A stretch of DNA of 40,392 nucleotides from an uncultured Aureispira sp. (GCA_937942475.1 CALDEP010000158.1:1-40392), one strand, 5' to 3'. Counted from the stretch's first letter, positions 986-38,602 are shown. Notes: generated by a model from the sequence alone, not told the origin. A program made the numbers and translations.

Positions 986-1240
986 AATTAGTAACTGATG
1001 TTACGCAGAACTTAAAGCGCAGCGCTCATGAGCAAAGCGAACTAAAATTAATTAGGCTGCTTAAAACTAGTAAACAGCTCAATAAATATAGTTTAATTTT
1101 GAATTTTTAATGTTGAATGCCCTATTTTTAACCAAAAGGCATTCAACATTCAAAATTAAGCATTAAAACAATATTTTTTAAGTAAAAGCAAGTTCAATAC
1201 TATCTAAAATGTTCTTGCGTAAATGAGTTAGTAAGTATTC
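986..1240. repeat. MITE-like interspersed repeat, copy A (~255 bp, ~16-bp terminal inverted repeats TAACTGATGTTACGCA / TGCGTAA(C)ATGAGTTA, internal long imperfect hairpin)
   Basis: Near-identical (~90+%) to 38191-38457 by direct comparison. Ends are inverted complements of each other. The internal perfect 13-bp stem AATGTTGAATGCC...GGCATTCAACATT has a 16-nt loop. Confidence 0.8.
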
Positions 1241-2536: not shown

Positions 2537-3268
2537 TTATACATTGACAGCACCCAAAACACTTTCAAAATAAGCATTCACCTTATCCACAAAACTATTA
2601 TCAATCACAGAAACCTGAATCAAATATTCAGCACTTGATTTCTTTTCAATATTAATCGTTTGATTAGCAGAGATGTAAGGACAGTTTAAAGCCAAGTGAT
2701 ACAAGTCTTCAGAACGTTGATCTGCGGCTACTTGAACCTTAAAAGAATGTGTTTGAACGTTATTTTTTTTGTACAATTGTTTTAAAACAGCCGTTCTGAT
2801 TTTTGCATTAGGAATGACGACCAATTCCCCTTTTTCGTTTACTAATTTGGTCTGTGATAAGTTAATGGCAGACAATTGACCTTGTGCAAAATCGGCAGAA
2901 ATAATGTCACCTGCTCGAAATTGATTGCTAAACTTAATCAAAATTCCAGCAAAGACATTTCGCCAATAATTGAAACCAATTCCAAACACGAGAACAGATA
3001 AAATGACAGTCACAATAAGATTAGCTTGTAACATTTTGATATAAAACAGCGCCACAAACAAAACCCAAATAATGATTTGAATGCGCTGCCACCACTTTAG
3101 AGTCGTTGCTTGACGCTCCTTAATAAAAGGAATAATGTAGTTGTTAATAATATTAAACACTACAGCGATGATAAGACCTGCCACCAAGAAGGTTAAAATA
3201 TCTGAAACAGGTATGTTTTCTAGAGAGCGCATATTTTTTAGTTTAAGATTTTTAATTCTGTGAGCCAA
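2537..3268 (-). CDS. Small-conductance mechanosensitive channel (MscS family)
   Basis: 243 aa with N-terminal TM helices followed by the MscS pore/beta-domain signature (FRAGDIISADFAQGQLSAINLSQTKLVNEKGELVVIPNAKI). The start overlaps the stop region of the upstream transporter gene by 31 bp (3238-3268). Confidence 0.75.
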   Translation of the reverse strand: MAHRIKNLKLKNMRSLENIPVSDILTFLVAGLIIAVVFNIINNYIIPFIKERQATTLKWWQRIQIIIWVLFVALFYIKMLQANLIVTVILSVLVFGIGFNYWRNVFAGILIKFSNQFRAGDIISADFAQGQLSAINLSQTKLVNEKGELVVIPNAKIRTAVLKQLYKKNNVQTHSFKVQVAADQRSEDLYHLALNCPYISANQTINIEKKSSAEYLIQVSVIDNSFVDKVNAYFESVLGAVNV

Positions 3269-6200
3269 TTTTCTACATAATACTTAGCGTGATGATTCAA
3301 AACATAGGTTCCCTGTGACTGTTTGTAAATCAAACCTGCCTTGTCCATTTCTTTAAGCGTTCCAGGAATTCCCATTGGTTTCTTGGAGCCAAATATTTTC
3401 TGAAGATCGCCTTCTTTTAGTCGATTATGAATCAAAATATGATACAAAATAATCTTCCAATTTGGATCTTTAATATTAGGAAAACTCAAAGAAGTAGGTT
3501 TTTGAATGATCAATTTATCTTCCTCGTTTTTTTGGATGTTATACACCCAAGCATTTAAAGCAACTCCAATCGTTCCTTTGGTTTTTAGATGAATGTCATT
3601 CAACAGCACATCTACTTTTTTGTTACTATCTACCAAATTATCTTTGAACCAAAGTGCTGCACCAGCCGTTTTATGACGATTTAAAATGATGTCTTTCAAT
3701 TCACTTTTACTAGCAGGAGACATGATAATAGTCGATAATAAATTCTTTTCTAAATTGGAGGTTTTGCGGATGATATGAAAGCTTTGCAAGCTACAATTCA
3801 ATAAGAAATAATGTCGATTGCCAAAGTTTTCAATGATCTTCGACAAGTAATTAATTGCTTGACTACCATCTGGACTTTTTACCCACCATTCTTCAATATC
3901 GTTAAAAATCAAGACTGTTTTTTGATCGAGTTGATTAAGAATAGATTCCGTCGTTCCAGCTTTGCTAAAGGTTTTTTGAAAGGCTTTGTGCAAATCGGTG
4001 GCATCAAACTTTTGCTTAGAAGGCGGATTAATGTAGTATTTTTCCTTTTTTATTAAGGTCTTGGCAACCGTTTCTGTAAAGAAGGTTTTTCCAGATAAAG
4101 AAGCACCAATAACAATAATGGCTCCACTAGTGCCTTGATCCATTCGTTGAATGGCGTTTTGAGCAATGCTCAATTCCTTGGCTCTACTACTCGAATTCAC
4201 ATTGTTCAAGTGACTGCCTGTAAAGAGTTTTTTATAATAAAAGGGCAATTCCTGTTCTGCGGAAGCTTGGATGCTCAAAGCAGCCATAAAGTTACTCGTT
4301 TGCTCGATGTTATTAAGATATTGATAATGCTTGCTGTCAAATTTCAGGGTATTAATATCTCGTTTGCGTTGGGCAACAAAATCAAGCCCATTGTGGTAAA
4401 TTGTTGCCGTGCTTTTTTTCTTTTGATTAAACCAATCTTGAAATCTATTGGTGATAATTGGTTTTTGAGAAGCACCCGAATAAGAGTCAATCGACTCAAT
4501 AATCGTACGGATATTTAAGTCTACACTAGTGTTGTGCAAATTGGTATTGACAGAGTGGTTGAAGGTTGCAGCACTGTTCTCTAATTTACTGTTGGCTTGT
4601 TCAATGCGCTGTTGAACTTCTTCTACAATGCTTTCATAATAACTGTGGTCCTTATTATGAACAGATTCATCAATAATGTGCTTAATTAAGTTGGCAAGGT
4701 TGTAAATCTCTTCCGAATTACCATTATAAACAACCGCCAAATTGTGCATACTTTTATGCAAAGGAGAGAGGTAGGAAGATTGAATGATGTAATCTTCTAT
4801 GTTCGCCAAATTAATAGACAAACTCTCCACATCTTCTGCCTGCGATTTGAATAAGACATTAAACGATTCTGCACTCATCAAATCGGTGACTTTAGAAGCC
4901 GAACGAGAAATAGATAAAATATTATCCTCGTCATTTTCCAAAATGCTAGTAAAGTTAACATGTGCAATACTTTCCGCCAGTAAATCCAATTCTTTATCAT
5001 TAAAAGCAACTTTACTTTTGGTGGATAAATGCTCGGTAGCATGATTGACGGCTGTTAATAGCGCGGCAATTCGATCTTCTTGAGGAGCAATGACCTGCTC
5101 TTGCACATAGGTTTTTATTTTTTCATTGATATTAAAAACAGAAAGCCCTGCAATGGATAAATTCAATTCAGATTCTACTTGCTTGTGTCCCAACACTTGA
5201 TTGCGTTCCCAGTCGGAAGCAAAACCATAGAGATTGGATTCTGTCAATAAAATATCTTTTTTCTTTGCTTTTTTAATGTTTTTAAGCAAATCTGGATTTT
5301 CCAAATCCTTGATTAGAGCAATACAAGCATCACGCTCATAGACTTTTAATTCATGGACAATTTGATGTTCCAAACCAGAATAAATTTCCTTGGCATGAAG
5401 GATAAATTGTGTAATGTTATTATTGAACTCTTCTAGCGCATTTTCCTTGCTTTTTGGAGTGGCGACAATGTTTTCAATGACCAATTGAGATTGACTGGCA
5501 ATTTTTTCTGCCAATTGATTGATTGAAATGAAGTTTTGAACCCCAAATTCATAGAGTGTGTGCTGTATGTTTGGTAATATTTTGCCATCAAAATAATGCT
5601 CCAAAGCTTCTTTCCAATAGAGCCAGTGCCCGCCATTTTGAGCAGATTTTACCTTTTTAGGAGCTTTGGCAACAAATACTTTGCGCTCATTAATAAACTG
5701 ATGCACGCCTTTTTCCAAAATTTCTTCTAAAGAATGTAATTTATCATTCCTGAAATTCTCTGAAAGTGCCGTGAGTTCACCTAAAAAATTTTGTAGTTCG
5801 GCAATAAAGGTATGTGCTGATTGATGTTGCTTTAATTCTAACAATGTTTTGTCAAACACTTTGTCAATGCTATCAATATATTGATAATAAAAAGAAGCAA
5901 TCGTAGATAAACTAGGCTCCGTAAGTTGATTGGCACTGCTGTCCCAATGTTTGTCTAAATCGGACACCAAATCATTGATCGCAGCATCCGCAGAAATAGG
6001 CAAGGGGTTGAGTGCTGTAGATTGCTTGGCGATCACTCGCTTTTCTTGTGAAAAGTCTAGATCCAACTCATTAAAATCATCAGAAGCTTTGACTAAAAGT
6101 GTTGTGCCAATGGTTTCAAATAATTCATTGGTTTTTAGAACAAATGCCGCTTGTTTGTCTACAGGAATGTTTGGAATTCCTAGAACAATTAAATCAGTAT

Positions 6201-8226
6201 TGGCAGATTGCAATTCAATAATGTCGTAAAACGGTTTTTGCTCCACGCCATTGTTGATAATCTTAATTTCTGCGTCAATTCGAAGTTTGCTGATTAGTTT
6301 GGCAATTTTAGATTTAATGACCGCATTATCAACATTATTATAATTCACAAACAAGACCCGAATCTTAGCACTCGACCACTTAGACGATTGCACAATGAAA
6401 CGAGCGATGTTCAACATCATTTCCGCATTATTATTATCGGTATCTCGCCACCATAAATCAATCGTTTTGTATTCACCAAAATCATAACGCTTGTCATAAT
6501 CCAAATAGAGTAAATTATAATCCAAATGAATTAATTTCTCGGTCATTTGAGCATAATCGACTTGATCCTTGATGTTTTTGGGCCAAGTCATCATAATGGT
6601 ATTGGGCTCAATACCCGAAAAACCAAAGGTGGCAGCAATATTTTCGATCCCTTTATAGATATTATCAACTTCAATTCTTCGACCAAAAATACCTAAATTT
6701 TCAAGCGTTTCATCTTTTACATTTTGTTTGGTTTTGGCTAAAGGAGCGTTGCCATCAACATTGGTAATTAGGTTAAAATTAGTCACCATCCCCGTTCTTC
6801 CAGAGACAATTTTACTGAAGGTCAGTAATTGAGGGCGTTCTTCTTCTTGCTCGCTGCTGAATAGAATCACATTAGGATTCCAATTGTTGTTGGCAGTTTC
6901 AGTTTGTTCTAAACGTTTGAGTCCTTTGGCAACGATATTTTCCCAAACACTCCGCCAAACATCGCCAGAATCTAGCATAATTTGCTTGCGTTGCAACCAA
7001 AAATAAATGCCCATTATGATAAAAATAGAGGCAAACATGGCAATCATATCCAATTTGAACATGATTCCAAAACAAGCAATAAAACCAACTAAACCAAACC
7101 ACCTATTGACTTTAAAGGTCGGTTGGAAATCAGGATTTGCCCAACTTTCTAAGAAGAAAGACAGGTTAATAAAGCCATAAGCCGCTAAATAAAACATGGA
7201 AACAACTCCTGCAATAACATCTAATTCTCCAATCAAAATACCCATTTGAGCAATGAGAAAGACTAAGAAAAGTGCATTGACGGGTTCATTATTTTTACCT
7301 TTTCCTTTTCCAAAAATCTTTGGCGTTACTTTGTCAATAGACATTGCTTGCAAAATTCTTGGACCACCTAAAATTCCTCCCAAAGCAGAAGAAAGTGTTG
7401 CTCCCCAAACTCCTGCAACAACGGCTGGAGCATAAAAGGATATTTTCATTAAAATATTATAATCAGAACGCAATAGATCGGTGTTAACAGAATAGCTAAT
7501 AAAAACAGCCAAAGCCATATAAACGATAAAACCAACGGCAATAGCTGCAATCGTTCCTACGGGAATATCTTTTTTAGGATCTTGCAAATCGCCACTCATG
7601 GCAATCCCTGCGGTAAAACCAGTCACAGCAGGAAAAAATACAGCAAAAACAGTCGCCAAAGGAACCGACCCTTCCGTTGAAAATAGGGCAGGGGTGGCGG
7701 CAGGGGCAAACTCATTGGTTCCCCAGAAAATAGAGAATAAGGATAAAATAATAGCTGCCAAGATAAAGAACTGTGTCTTTAAGGCAACAGAAGTACTAAT
7801 TAAGGCAATTGCTGTCAACAAAAATAAGGCAACAGAGCCCGAAATTCTCAAACCATTAATATCGGTACTCAAACCAAAATAGCCGTTGAAACTTTCGGCA
7901 AAACCAATCAAATAAAGGGCAATAGAAAGGGCTGTCCCCACATAAAGCGCAATTCCAATCGCACCTCCAATAGGAATTCCCATACTTCTAGATAAGATAT
8001 AGTAAATTCCACCAGCACCTACTTTTTTATCAGTAGCAATAGAAGAAACACTCAATCCAGTTGAAATGGAAATAATATGTGCCAGGAAGACAATTAACAT
8101 CGTTCCAATTAGCCCTGCATTTCCAACAACCCAACCCATTCTCATGTACATGATAACACCTAGAATGGTTAATACAGAAGGTGTAAATACACCCGCAAAT
8201 GCTCCAAATTTTTTTTGTCTTGCCAC
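3238..8226 (-). CDS. SLC12-like cation-chloride cotransporter (12-TM APC fold plus USP-like C-terminal domain) fused to a ~900-aa cytoplasmic extension ending in a P-loop/AAA+-like NTPase domain
   Basis: 1662-aa ORF. Residues ~1-480 form a polytopic APC/SLC12 permease (MARQKKFGAFAGVFTPSVLTILGVIMYMRMGWVVG... with multiple hydrophobic helices). Residues ~480-740 resemble the SLC12 cytoplasmic C-terminal domain (RVLFVNYNN..., DLIVLGIPNIP). A long helical linker follows. The final ~290 aa carry Walker A GASLSGKT (nt ~4084-4110 on the reverse strand), Walker B-like VLIFNDIEEW, and a sensor-like FLLNCS. Confidence 0.7.
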   Translation of the reverse strand: MARQKKFGAFAGVFTPSVLTILGVIMYMRMGWVVGNAGLIGTMLIVFLAHIISISTGLSVSSIATDKKVGAGGIYYILSRSMGIPIGGAIGIALYVGTALSIALYLIGFAESFNGYFGLSTDINGLRISGSVALFLLTAIALISTSVALKTQFFILAAIILSLFSIFWGTNEFAPAATPALFSTEGSVPLATVFAVFFPAVTGFTAGIAMSGDLQDPKKDIPVGTIAAIAVGFIVYMALAVFISYSVNTDLLRSDYNILMKISFYAPAVVAGVWGATLSSALGGILGGPRILQAMSIDKVTPKIFGKGKGKNNEPVNALFLVFLIAQMGILIGELDVIAGVVSMFYLAAYGFINLSFFLESWANPDFQPTFKVNRWFGLVGFIACFGIMFKLDMIAMFASIFIIMGIYFWLQRKQIMLDSGDVWRSVWENIVAKGLKRLEQTETANNNWNPNVILFSSEQEEERPQLLTFSKIVSGRTGMVTNFNLITNVDGNAPLAKTKQNVKDETLENLGIFGRRIEVDNIYKGIENIAATFGFSGIEPNTIMMTWPKNIKDQVDYAQMTEKLIHLDYNLLYLDYDKRYDFGEYKTIDLWWRDTDNNNAEMMLNIARFIVQSSKWSSAKIRVLFVNYNNVDNAVIKSKIAKLISKLRIDAEIKIINNGVEQKPFYDIIELQSANTDLIVLGIPNIPVDKQAAFVLKTNELFETIGTTLLVKASDDFNELDLDFSQEKRVIAKQSTALNPLPISADAAINDLVSDLDKHWDSSANQLTEPSLSTIASFYYQYIDSIDKVFDKTLLELKQHQSAHTFIAELQNFLGELTALSENFRNDKLHSLEEILEKGVHQFINERKVFVAKAPKKVKSAQNGGHWLYWKEALEHYFDGKILPNIQHTLYEFGVQNFISINQLAEKIASQSQLVIENIVATPKSKENALEEFNNNITQFILHAKEIYSGLEHQIVHELKVYERDACIALIKDLENPDLLKNIKKAKKKDILLTESNLYGFASDWERNQVLGHKQVESELNLSIAGLSVFNINEKIKTYVQEQVIAPQEDRIAALLTAVNHATEHLSTKSKVAFNDKELDLLAESIAHVNFTSILENDEDNILSISRSASKVTDLMSAESFNVLFKSQAEDVESLSINLANIEDYIIQSSYLSPLHKSMHNLAVVYNGNSEEIYNLANLIKHIIDESVHNKDHSYYESIVEEVQQRIEQANSKLENSAATFNHSVNTNLHNTSVDLNIRTIIESIDSYSGASQKPIITNRFQDWFNQKKKSTATIYHNGLDFVAQRKRDINTLKFDSKHYQYLNNIEQTSNFMAALSIQASAEQELPFYYKKLFTGSHLNNVNSSSRAKELSIAQNAIQRMDQGTSGAIIVIGASLSGKTFFTETVAKTLIKKEKYYINPPSKQKFDATDLHKAFQKTFSKAGTTESILNQLDQKTVLIFNDIEEWWVKSPDGSQAINYLSKIIENFGNRHYFLLNCSLQSFHIIRKTSNLEKNLLSTIIMSPASKSELKDIILNRHKTAGAALWFKDNLVDSNKKVDVLLNDIHLKTKGTIGVALNAWVYNIQKNEEDKLIIQKPTSLSFPNIKDPNWKIILYHILIHNRLKEGDLQKIFGSKKPMGIPGTLKEMDKAGLIYKQSQGTYVLNHHAKYYVENWLTELKILN

Positions 8227-36532: not shown

Positions 36533-36904
36533 AAGCGTTTGATATTAAAATTGTAAAAAATCTACGACCACGAACTCTAAGCAAAACGCTCCTCTTTTGG
36601 TTCATTAAGAGAGCAGAGTATAGCGAATAAGTAGCAGCGGAACTAAGTATTATTAGTCCTAATAATGAAGTTATTTGCTAAGGTAGATTACTTGATTTTT
36701 GTTTCAATTAACATTAGATAATTAAACTTAATCGACGTTTTATTTATGCATTTAAGTCTATTGAGATAGCCTATAGACGTATATGTGTTTGAATTGATTG
36801 GGGGCTAATGATGATCATAGTGAAATAAAAAAGAAAAAATTTATTATGCGAATCAATAGCTAAAATTAGGTCTGATAAATAAAAAAGGGGAATAAAGGCT
36901 TCAC

Positions 36905-36995
36905 AAGAATGTTTAATGTTGAATTTTTAATGATGAATGCTCTATAGCATAAAAAACATTAAAAATTCAGTATTTAGCATTCAACATTTAAAAAG
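36905..36995. repeat. Degenerate fragment of the MITE-like repeat (internal hairpin core only)
   Basis: AATGTTGAATTTTTAATGATGAATGC...GCATTCAACATT matches the internal inverted-repeat core of the 986-1240 copy. Confidence 0.5.
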
Positions 36996-37096
36996 TAGGC
37001 TTGTAAAATGAGACAAGCCTGTTTTAAATGTACGATTTATTGATCTTTTAGCCCTTGATTCGCATAAACAGTTAAATTATAACAAATATAAAAATC

Positions 37097-38176
37097 ATGG
37101 CGGGCAATACATTTGGAAAGTTATTTAAGGTTACCACCTTTGGAGAGTCACATGGAAAAGGGATTGGTGTCGTTATTGATGGCTGTCCAGCAGGAATAAC
37201 ATTAGATTTAGCGTACATTCAAAATCAACTGAATCGCCGCAAACCAGGGCAATCTAAGATTGTAACTCAAAGAAAAGAAGCCGATGAATTTGAAATTTTA
37301 TCTGGAACCTTTGAAGGAAAAACAACAGGAACTCCGCTAACTTTATTTATTGCCAATACCAACCAAAAACCAAAGGATTACGAGCACATCAAAGATAAAT
37401 TTCGCCCCTCTCATGCGGATTTTACGTACGCAAAAAAATACATCAATAGAGATTATCGAGGTGGTGGGCGTTCTTCTGCTCGTGAAACTGCCGCTCGTGT
37501 TGCTGCTGGAGCTATTGCACAGCAGATTTTGGAACAAAAAGGCGTCAAAATTACCGCTTATGTCAGTCAAGTAGGTCCTTTGGTGATTCAACAAGCTAGG
37601 GAAGCTTTAGATTTTTCCTTGATTGAACAGACACCTGTTCGTTGTCCTGATCTATCTAGTGCCCAAGAAATGGAAAGCTACATTAAAAAAATAAAAAAAG
37701 AAGGCGATACAACAGGCGGTGTTGTTAGTTGCCTGATTCAAGGTTGTCCTGTTGGTTTGGGAGAGCCTATTTTTGATCGCTTACATGCCGAATTGGGAAA
37801 AGCTATGTTAAGTATCAATGCTTGTAAAGGCTTTCAATATGGTTCTGGCTTTGAGGGCGTTAGTATGCGAGGCTCTGAGCACAATGATATTTTTGTGAAT
37901 GATAATGGTAACATCAAAACAACTAGCAATTATTCGGGAGGTATTCAAGGAGGTATTTCTAATGGTATGGACATTTATTTTAGAACCGCTTTTAAACCTG
38001 TTGCGACGATTATGCGCCCTCAATCGTCCATTGATGTAGATGGAAATGCAGTAACAGTAACTGGCAAAGGGAGACATGATCCTTGTGTTGTCCCTAGAGC
38101 GGTGCCGATTGTGGAGTGTATGGCGGCATTGGTTTTGCTCGATTATTATTTATTGGCAATGACCGATCATTTTTAA
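37097..38176 (+). CDS. aroC: Chorismate synthase
   Basis: Canonical N-terminus [33 protein letters not shown] and downstream [17 protein letters not shown] and [12 protein letters not shown] motifs. 359 aa. Confidence 0.95.
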
Positions 38177-38190
38177 GAATCCTGTATTAT

Positions 38191-38457
38191 TAACTGATGT
38201 TACGCATAACTTAAAGCGCAGCGCTCATGAGCAAAGCGAACTAAAATTAATTAGGCTGCTCAAAACTAGTAAACGGCTCAATAAATATAGTTTAATTTTG
38301 AATTTTGAATGCTTAATTTTGAATGGCCTATTTTTAACCAAAAGGCATTAAACATTCAAAATTAAGCATTCAGCATTAAAACAATATTTTTTAAGTAAAA
38401 GCAATTTCAATACTACCTAAAATGTTCTTGCGTAACATGAGTTATTAATACATTATT
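38191..38457. repeat. MITE-like interspersed repeat, copy B
   Basis: Near-identical to 986-1240, with a ~13-bp internal insertion and a few substitutions. The same terminal inverted repeats TAACTGATGTTACGCA ... TGCGTAACATGAGTTA. Internal 15-bp inverted repeat TGAATGCTTAATTTT / AAAATTAAGCATTCA. Begins 15 bp after the aroC stop. Confidence 0.8.
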
Positions 38458-38602
38458 ATCAGATAAAGAATCCTGTAAATACAAATTAGGAGAGTTCTAT
38501 AAAAAAGCGTATTTTTGCGCTCTATTATAATTAATACTTTGTTTGTTTTTTTTATAAAAACTAAAAGATAGACGAAGTAGGCTAATGAAAAAATAAATTG
38601 CC

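Follow-up and report, generated by a model that had tools for sequence, protein, structure and literature searches.

Background

[quoted passage not shown] They carry stable predicted hairpins, lie in intergenic DNA near gene ends, and appear as filled and empty sites between relatives (PMC3184786, PMC10969869). Two intergenic repeats, copies A and B, resemble these elements in all of those respects. They lie in a stretch of 40,392 nucleotides from an uncultured Aureispira sp. (GCA_937942475.1 CALDEP010000158.1:1-40392), the whole of which was analysed and is called the window below. Both copies are very probably non-coding MITEs of about 240 bp, with inverted ends (CTGATGTTACGCA / TGCGTAACAT(C/G)AG) shared with a clade of IS701-family insertion sequences of about 1.1 kb; a probability of roughly 0.9 is given to this reading.

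The copies differ from the described MITEs in several ways. They have a cognate IS clade of their own, and their target-site duplication is the 7-bp TTA-N-TAA rather than TA (Correia) or 9 bp (Chunjie, MITEAba12). Their interior looks chimeric, with a palindromic module in common with a second MITE-like family, and one 13-bp end is found on many unrelated MITE interiors, in at least 15 phyla among the matches listed. The Nezha MITE of Anabaena and Nostoc, which is related to ISNpu3 and 130-170 bp long, is a cyanobacterial MITE that also has IS-matching ends, and its published example has the 10-bp direct repeat CATTATCTAC (PMC6042816). On present evidence Nezha was rejected as a member of the same family, because its direct repeat is 10 bp and not the 7-bp TTA-N-TAA.

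The closest described IS is ISAba11, which is 1101 bp long (PMC7760358) and has a 13-bp TIR (PMC7519801). Rieck et al. (2012) give HHEK in place of YREK as the signature of the ISAba11 family in the strict sense. The reference copy used here, from a plasmid of A. baumannii ATCC 17978 (L132:397-1497), agrees with the published length.

Two copies bounded by 7-bp direct repeats

The copies and their borders lie as follows.

988-994, plus strand: left target-site duplication of copy A, TTAGTAA; the identical 7-mer is at 1228-1234, with central base G on both sides
995-1227, plus strand: copy A, probable MITE of 233 bp; left TIR at 995-1007, CTGATGTTACGCA; right TIR at 1216-1227, TGCGTAA-ATGAG
1228-1234, plus strand: right target-site duplication of copy A, TTAGTAA
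38187-38193, plus strand: left target-site duplication of copy B, TTATTAA, 10 nt past the aroC stop codon
38194-38441, plus strand: copy B, probable MITE of 248 bp; left TIR at 38194-38206, CTGATGTTACGCA; right TIR at 38429-38441, TGCGTAACATGAG
38442-38448, plus strand: right target-site duplication of copy B, TTATTAA

An earlier note on this DNA, made by a model from the sequence alone, had described a MITE-like element present in two near-identical copies. That description is borne out by the TIRs, by the 7-bp duplications at both copies, by ends that match an IS with a transposase, and by empty sites in relatives. The two copies stand where the note placed them, with their boundaries corrected to 995-1227 and 38194-38441. 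Over the element proper, 225 of 233 aligned bases are identical (96.6%), and two indels of 7 nt and one of 1 nt separate A from B. Pairwise alignment gives an abrupt start and stop of similarity. The homology is limited upstream by ...TTA(G/T)TAACTGATG and downstream by ...ATGAGTTA(G/T)TAA, and outside both limits the flanks of A and B are unrelated.

Inverted ends of about 16 bp had been proposed. The ends are indeed inverted, and the TIR proper is 13 bp long (CTGATGTTACGCA / TGCGTAACATGAG), the outer 3 bp on each side being part of the 7-bp duplication. The right end of B matches at 12 of 13 positions, and that of A (TGCGTAA-ATGAG) has one base deleted. With up to three mismatches, the 16-mer TAACTGATGTTACGCA has three matches in the window, at the left ends of A and B and at the right end of B; shuffled sequences gave a mean of 0.25, and none of 100 shuffles reached three. 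A search for target-site duplications, which the note had recommended, returned perfect 7-bp direct repeats at both copies. The central base of the copy A duplication is G on both sides, which identifies it as a direct repeat, since the bases of an inverted repeat would be complementary. The longest open reading frame (ORF) is 31 amino acids in A and 38 in B; both start with TTG and neither is conserved between the copies. At 233 and 248 bp, the copies are within the size of prokaryotic MITEs (under about 600 bp). With the ends of the IS clade, no IS interior and no ORF longer than 38 amino acids, the copies are best classed as MITEs, and their interior, unrelated to the parent IS, makes them "type II" MITEs.

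Insertion sequences with the same ends

Other bacteria, among them a Cytophagales member of the same phylum, have autonomous elements with these ends.

L046:154-1268, Parashewanella: 1115 bp, duplication TTAACAA
L044:3549-4658, Cytophagales metagenome-assembled genome (MAG): 1110 bp, duplication TTAGTAA / ATAGTAA (6/7)
L117:559-1670, A. schindleri plasmid: 1112 bp, duplication TTATTTA
L120:570-1677, Cyanobacterium sp. HL-69 plasmid: 1108 bp, duplication matching at 5/7, annotated by the depositor as "group ISAba11 transposase"
L133, Moraxella osloensis: about 1.1 kb, end CTGAAGTTACGCA, duplication ATATTAA
L134, Piscirickettsia salmonis: about 1.1 kb, end CTCACCTTACGCA, duplication CTTATAA

The last four were added by BLAST against plasmids and have the same or near-identical ends; in L044, L046, L117 and L120 the same 13-mer stands at either end. 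The L046 and L044 elements each hold one ORF of about 350 amino acids that matches Pfam DDE_5 and DDE_Tnp_1. Their transposases score 330 and 314 bits, respectively, on the NCBIfam model NF049921 ("IS701 family transposase", cutoff 250), within the 314-349 bits of the six clade transposases. All six have the motif YQ(K/R)RW.(V/I)E.(Y/F)H(K/R)SLK, that is, Y(2)R(3)E(6)K. The clade comprises 1933 proteins at E ≤ 1e-30, mostly from contigs of 1.1-1.6 kb.

Size, 13-bp inverted repeats and matches in Acinetobacter first led to the assumption that the partner IS is ISAba11 itself. The clade elements do resemble ISAba11 in their length of about 1.1 kb, their single ORF and their 13-bp TIR, of which the inner seven bases, TTACGCA, are identical in both. 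Transposases of both kinds also meet NF049921, which is the best-scoring model for ISAba11 (394 bits). However, the outer six TIR bases are TAGGAC in ISAba11 and CTGATG in the clade (full TIRs TAGGACTTACGCA and CTGATGTTACGCA), and the ISAba11 duplication is 5 bp (CATAT on both sides in L132) rather than 7 bp. The ISAba11 transposase has the motif HSSHWKIEQYHRVIK, H(2)H(3)E(6)K, in contrast to the canonical YREK of the clade, and is only about 25% identical to the clade enzymes. The window elements, furthermore, are non-autonomous, with unrelated interiors. ISAba11 itself is ruled out by its TIR, 5-bp duplication, HHEK motif and 25% identity. Given the shared NF049921 match and inner TTACGCA together with the low identity and the differing TIR half, duplication and motif, the partner IS is, by sequence comparison, an IS701-family sister clade of ISAba11.

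Two further observations concern this clade. In the Cytophagales MAG (L044:3453-4658), an 89-bp MITE and the 1.1-kb autonomous IS lie head to tail with one TTAGTAA in common, and ATAGTAA flanks the pair on either outer side, as would fit insertion or movement of the two together. Enzymes with about 50% identity to the Cytophagales transposase (P0212, P0225) are annotated from archaeal MAGs (Aenigmarchaeota, "archaeon"), a hint either that the IS clade reaches archaea or that the bins are contaminated.

Spread of the ends and the duplication rule

One representative genome per species was scanned with the pattern TAACTSATGTTACGCAN{1,2}AAC, which fits both ends. The end motif occurs in more than 114 genome blocks among the matches listed, to which the counts in this section refer; about 17 chance matches are estimated from the database size. 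At least 15 bacterial phyla are represented, among them Bacteroidota (many matches), Ignavibacteriota, Chlorobiota, Cyanobacteriota, several classes of Pseudomonadota, Planctomycetota, Acidobacteriota, Armatimonadota, Chloroflexota, Patescibacteria, Spirochaetota, Calditrichota, Latescibacterota and Bdellovibrionota. The motif is common in cyanobacteria and in Polaromonas. Viral contigs scanned with the motif gave no match. The interiors between the ends are entirely different from lineage to lineage.

Each left end was paired, at loose stringency, with the nearest inverted right end, which gave 83 pairs. A span of 54-560 bp separates 77 of them, and the other six span 1.1-2.3 kb; two of these six (L046 and L044) enclose a transposase ORF, and four enclose unrelated genes or short ORFs. 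Of the elements retrieved, far more are MITEs than copies that bear a transposase.

The flanks across the retrieved elements read TTA-n|TAACTSATG ... SAGTTA|n-TAA, with the same n on both sides, which indicates a direct repeat because an inverted repeat would give the complement. For a count, the element was redefined as CT(C/G)ATGTTACGCA...TGCGTAACAT(C/G)AG, and the k bases outside each end were compared. A perfect 7-bp duplication borders 42 of 69 paired elements; with permuted partners the mean is 2.3 and the highest count 8. Other values of k show no excess, save k = 8 (6/69 perfect, 0.2 expected). The central base of TTA-N-TAA agrees on the two sides in 56 of the 69. At the upstream positions left unconstrained by the pattern, the consensus is T (74%), T (66%), A (67%), N, over a background of 29%. 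The autonomous copies, with non-palindromic 7-bp duplications, indicate that the outer TAA/TTA is target sequence and not part of the terminal repeat.

Sites with and without copy B

In AroC, the window shows 92% identity to an Aureispira MAG and 89% to Aureispira sp. CCB-E. Together with type-IX secretion sorting domains in several window proteins, this marks the host as an uncultured, Aureispira-like organism of the Saprospiraceae; it is present in JGI 3300045300, ERZ27275031, SRR14527630 and ERR9287630. The spacer between aroC and mtaB is 426 bp in the window and 95-196 bp in relatives that have no element there (L123/L124, L125/L126, L130/L131). These are relatives at the level of species (AroC 89-93% identical), not strains. 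The conserved block upstream of mtaB in the relatives aligns directly to the right of the insertion in the window. A 12-nt direct repeat, AAGAATCCTGTA, lies at 38175-38186 and 38466-38477 and brackets copy B outside its 7-bp duplication. Its right copy is kept in the relatives, just upstream of the conserved mtaB leader block, and its left copy is found only in this species.

Copy B is present in three assemblies of the species, including contigs L115 and L121 (the latter partial, the contig ending inside the element). In L115, a 35-nt deletion follows directly on the left TIR (at L115:11111, corresponding to window 38207-38241), with TAA microhomology at its bounds. A Logan contig from another sample, L116, breaks at 38209, where the deletion variant diverges, so strain heterogeneity explains the break, consistent with the coexistence of both copy B variants in that sample. 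Contig ends inside the element (L116, L119) had been considered as a sign of repeat copy number. This use was dropped, since the L116 break reflects strain heterogeneity and the L119 end is uninformative.

The note had also proposed a search for copies elsewhere. A metagenome scan with an internal 20-mer found one extra copy, in another metagenome (L118:750-1006), in an unrelated context and with a duplication matching at 6/7. Its right TIR has a 1-nt deletion, as in A.

The palindrome and element C

Each copy contains a long palindrome, as the earlier note had seen.

1092-1167: imperfect palindrome of copy A, with arms at 1092-1121 and 1138-1167, built of the 7-nt units TTTAATT/TTGAATT/TTTAATG/TTGAATG
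38297-38381: palindrome of copy B, with 29-nt arms that are 90% complementary and one more 7-nt unit per arm than in A

The 30-nt arms of the copy A palindrome are 87% complementary, and its core is a perfect 13-bp stem (1109-1121/1138-1150) with a 16-nt loop. The L118 copy, like B, has one 7-nt unit more than A in each arm.

A degenerate third copy had been proposed at 36905-36995. What lies there is instead the hairpin module of a separate element bounded by its own TIRs, element C, 1.1 kb upstream of copy B.

36846-37065, plus strand: element C, MITE-like, 220 bp; 20-bp TIRs at 36846-36865 (ATGCGAATCAATAGCTAAAA) and 37046-37065 (reverse complement ATGCGAATCAAGGGCTAAAA)
36907-36982: hairpin module inside element C, shared with copies A and B
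36997-37020: terminator-like hairpin inside element C

The 20-bp inverted ends of element C read ATGCGAATCAAG(C/G)GCTAAAA, and in same-species contigs (L115:9750-9969, L121:2701-2920) the element is bordered by a 5-bp duplication, AAACA. It is absent from relatives; aroB and aroC are there only 4-6 nt apart, and element C is therefore also an insertion. Similarity between A and C is significant only over 36911-36984, the hairpin core of about 75 nt (local score 67; shuffle maximum 33), and a longer homology between the left end of element C and the interior of A and B was rejected on the same ground. The window and the contigs L115 and L121 diverge exactly at the left end of element C (36846), which places a rearrangement at this end and suggests that the rearrangement was mediated by the element. 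An unrelated Bacteroidales MAG likewise contains the 20-nt end of element C (ATGCGAATCAAGGGTTAAAA, at L043:3201-3220). There it directly adjoins a CTGATGTTACGCA-type MITE end; the end sequence of element C is thus also widespread.

The same heptamer-built palindrome in an element with different ends gives the A/B family the look of a chimera that captured a pre-existing repeat.

A possible course of events

A transposase of the clade, supplied in trans, would bind the 13-bp ends, excise or copy the element, and insert it through staggered cuts 7 bp apart, presumably at AT-rich TTA-N-TAA sites. Such a target resembles back-to-back stop codons and is mildly enriched in intergenic DNA. Copies would survive mainly between genes, insertions into genes being selected against. 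At copy A, positions 1228-1230 are the TAA stop codon of a minus-strand beta-lactamase-family ORF (1228-2475), which the duplicated target supplies and would have regenerated. Enrichment of TTANTAA in intergenic DNA is about 1.7-fold (10 of 46 sites in 13% of the window). This is too small for the target motif to be the cause of the intergenic location, so the position at gene ends would mainly reflect the survival of harmless insertions. Effects on neighbouring genes are possible: the hairpin may work as a terminator or insulator, or there may be an outward promoter.

Several observations weigh against assigning the copies to an IS-driven family in this host. Among the best 120 homologues of the Cytophagales transposase there is no Aureispira-named protein, and a cognate transposase was looked for and not found in the window, the same-species contigs or about 100 kb of related Aureispira loci (contigs L115, L118 and L121-L131 being covered). 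A mobilising partner in the host can therefore only be inferred. The empty-site spacers of the relatives have diverged, and a base-for-base empty TTATTAA site was not recovered from them. Only three insertion loci of the A/B family were seen in the window, among the genome matches listed and in the metagenome scan: two in the window and the one in L118. Recent mobility, which the earlier note had suggested, is upheld only in part, as the copies do not match fully (94-97% identity) and the window and same-species contigs gave no transposase. With the damaged right TIR of A and of L118 and the same 94-97% identity, current activity is doubtful, and the family may be inactive. Finally, the scan could retrieve only elements with TAA next to one end, which leaves half of the target consensus subject to ascertainment bias. 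The other half and the independently found elements agree with TTA-N-TAA, and the preference for this target is real.

Alternative explanations

As the earlier note had allowed, the repeat might instead primarily encode a structured small RNA. The hairpin would then be what functions, and the inverted ends would belong to the RNA fold. Both copies fold far better than shuffles (z = -4.4 for A and -5.2 for B), the hairpin module is retained in element C (z = -7.2), and A and B differ by the symmetrical gain or loss of a 7-nt unit in the two arms. These z-scores are uninformative, however, because a palindrome with TIRs folds well as DNA or RNA and on either strand. Three substitutions in the inner stem of B are not compensatory and its pairing register is shifted relative to A, which leaves no covariation signal for an RNA. 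Rfam at the gathering threshold had no match anywhere in the window, and sub-threshold E-value scans of the window and both regions returned only noise from microRNA-precursor-like AT-rich hairpins on both strands; a scan for tRNA and tmRNA had no match either. Relative to the flanking genes, A is antisense and B is sense. What is conserved across phyla is the 13-bp end and the 7-bp duplication, not the interior, and a small RNA would leave the duplications unexplained. The small-RNA proposal is thus unsupported and improbable. A domesticated regulatory module (terminator, insulator or promoter cassette) kept at gene ends, with vestigial transposon features, is slightly less probable again. 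In its favour, a gene boundary is 10-40 nt away at all three loci, the left end is in A and in the L118 copy 37 and 24 nt, respectively, upstream of a start codon whose gene encodes a secreted protein and points away from the element, TAnnTTTG motifs in the hairpin arms resemble the Bacteroidota -7 box, and copy B is kept in three assemblies of the species. Yet the scan found no terminator-like site within A or B, TAnnTTTG occurs 75 times in this AT-rich window, and scans for sigma-70 promoters and for terminators around the copies did not rise above shuffles, the promoter scan being unsuited to Bacteroidota. Orientation relative to transcription is inconsistent, related species manage with no element at aroC-mtaB, 35 nt of copy B are missing from one strain, and position at three loci is statistically uninformative.

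The first reading of the ends as TAAC...GTTA, beginning and ending with TA, might point to a different class of mobile element, such as a TA-duplicating MITE of the IS630/Tc1-mariner type (like Correia), and a pair of inverted short motifs around a hairpin recalls a repetitive extragenic palindromic (REP) doublet (REPIN) moved by a REP-associated tyrosine transposase (RAYT). REPINs have species-specific REP hairpins, an associated Y1 transposase and a GTAG-type 5' tetranucleotide, and are not known to make a target duplication. Here the agreement of the central base in 56 of 69 elements as a direct repeat makes the duplication 7 bp and not 2, and autonomous copies are flanked by the non-palindromic TTATTTA, TTAACAA and CTTATAA. 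The autonomous elements with these ends encode a DDE enzyme of the IS701 family, not an IS630 or Y1 enzyme. These points make another mobile class very unlikely, and a RAYT-mobilised REP or REPIN was set aside on the 7-bp duplication, the occurrence of the ends in at least 15 phyla, and the DDE enzyme. Least probable of all is that a segmental duplication, or gene conversion between the two loci, left the copies behind in place of transposition. The window has only two full copies, at 96.6% identity, which such an event could produce. But the similarity reaches to the 7-bp duplications on either side and no further, and a larger duplicated segment, named in advance as evidence against a MITE, is refuted by this comparison of the flanks. 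In addition, TTAGTAA and TTATTAA differ, as expected of independent insertions, the third copy sits in an unrelated context, and the same ends bound unrelated interiors in many phyla. The interpretation of A and B as MITEs of the IS701-family clade is preferred over all of these.

Significance and further observations

Taken as MITEs, the copies explain two intergenic repeats and, with element C, a local rearrangement hotspot around aroC, and their stretches are to be annotated as mobile-element scars rather than regulatory RNAs. This is an ordinary kind of mobile DNA, and no new mechanism is revealed. The 13-mer with the 7-bp TTA-N-TAA duplication is a simple and highly specific signature for MITEs of this clade in MAGs of many phyla. 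It could aid repeat annotation, help to explain contig breaks, and make it easier to follow how an IS clade akin to the clinically relevant ISAba11 has spread horizontally.

A broader proposal can be put forward only tentatively and is rather doubtful at present: that the end CTGATGTTACGCA and the 7-bp TTA-N-TAA duplication mark a very large, so far undescribed MITE superfamily, with unrelated interiors by the dozen and members in at least 15 phyla, driven by the YREK-type sister clade of ISAba11. In such a superfamily, the end sequence may have changed hardly at all, with transposases that have drifted apart to 44-54% identity. The target, two back-to-back stop codons, may allow insertions to regenerate the stop of the gene that they hit, and the Aureispira-like family may show how a MITE originates when it takes over a palindromic module of another MITE-like element. 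A dedicated survey of the 7-bp target rule and of how the 13-mer is conserved across phyla is perhaps worthwhile.

A literature search with the end sequence had a sole recurring match, to primers for the attI1 region of class 1 integrons (PMC2811028), with a 12-nt identity, GATGTTACGCAG. The identity was judged a coincidence and an integron attI/attC origin rejected, as such sites have an R''/L''-L'/R' architecture with a GTTRRRY core, which GTTACGC does not fit; the scanned ORFs of the window showed neither an integrase nor a cassette array.

The genes next to the copies are those that had been named from the sequence: Pfam assigns them to a beta-lactamase family, a leucine-rich repeat (LRR) protein, chorismate synthase (aroC) and an MtaB-type radical SAM protein. 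Several window proteins have type-IX secretion sorting domains. An 834-amino-acid ORF at 23741-26245 (plus strand) matches Pfam MVP_shoulder (97 bits) and Vault_3 and is a bacterial homologue of the eukaryotic major vault protein. Another long ORF (1662 amino acids; 3238-8226, minus strand) has an N-terminal amino-acid permease/SLC12-like transporter domain followed by a very long C-terminal region with a weak AAA_16 match.

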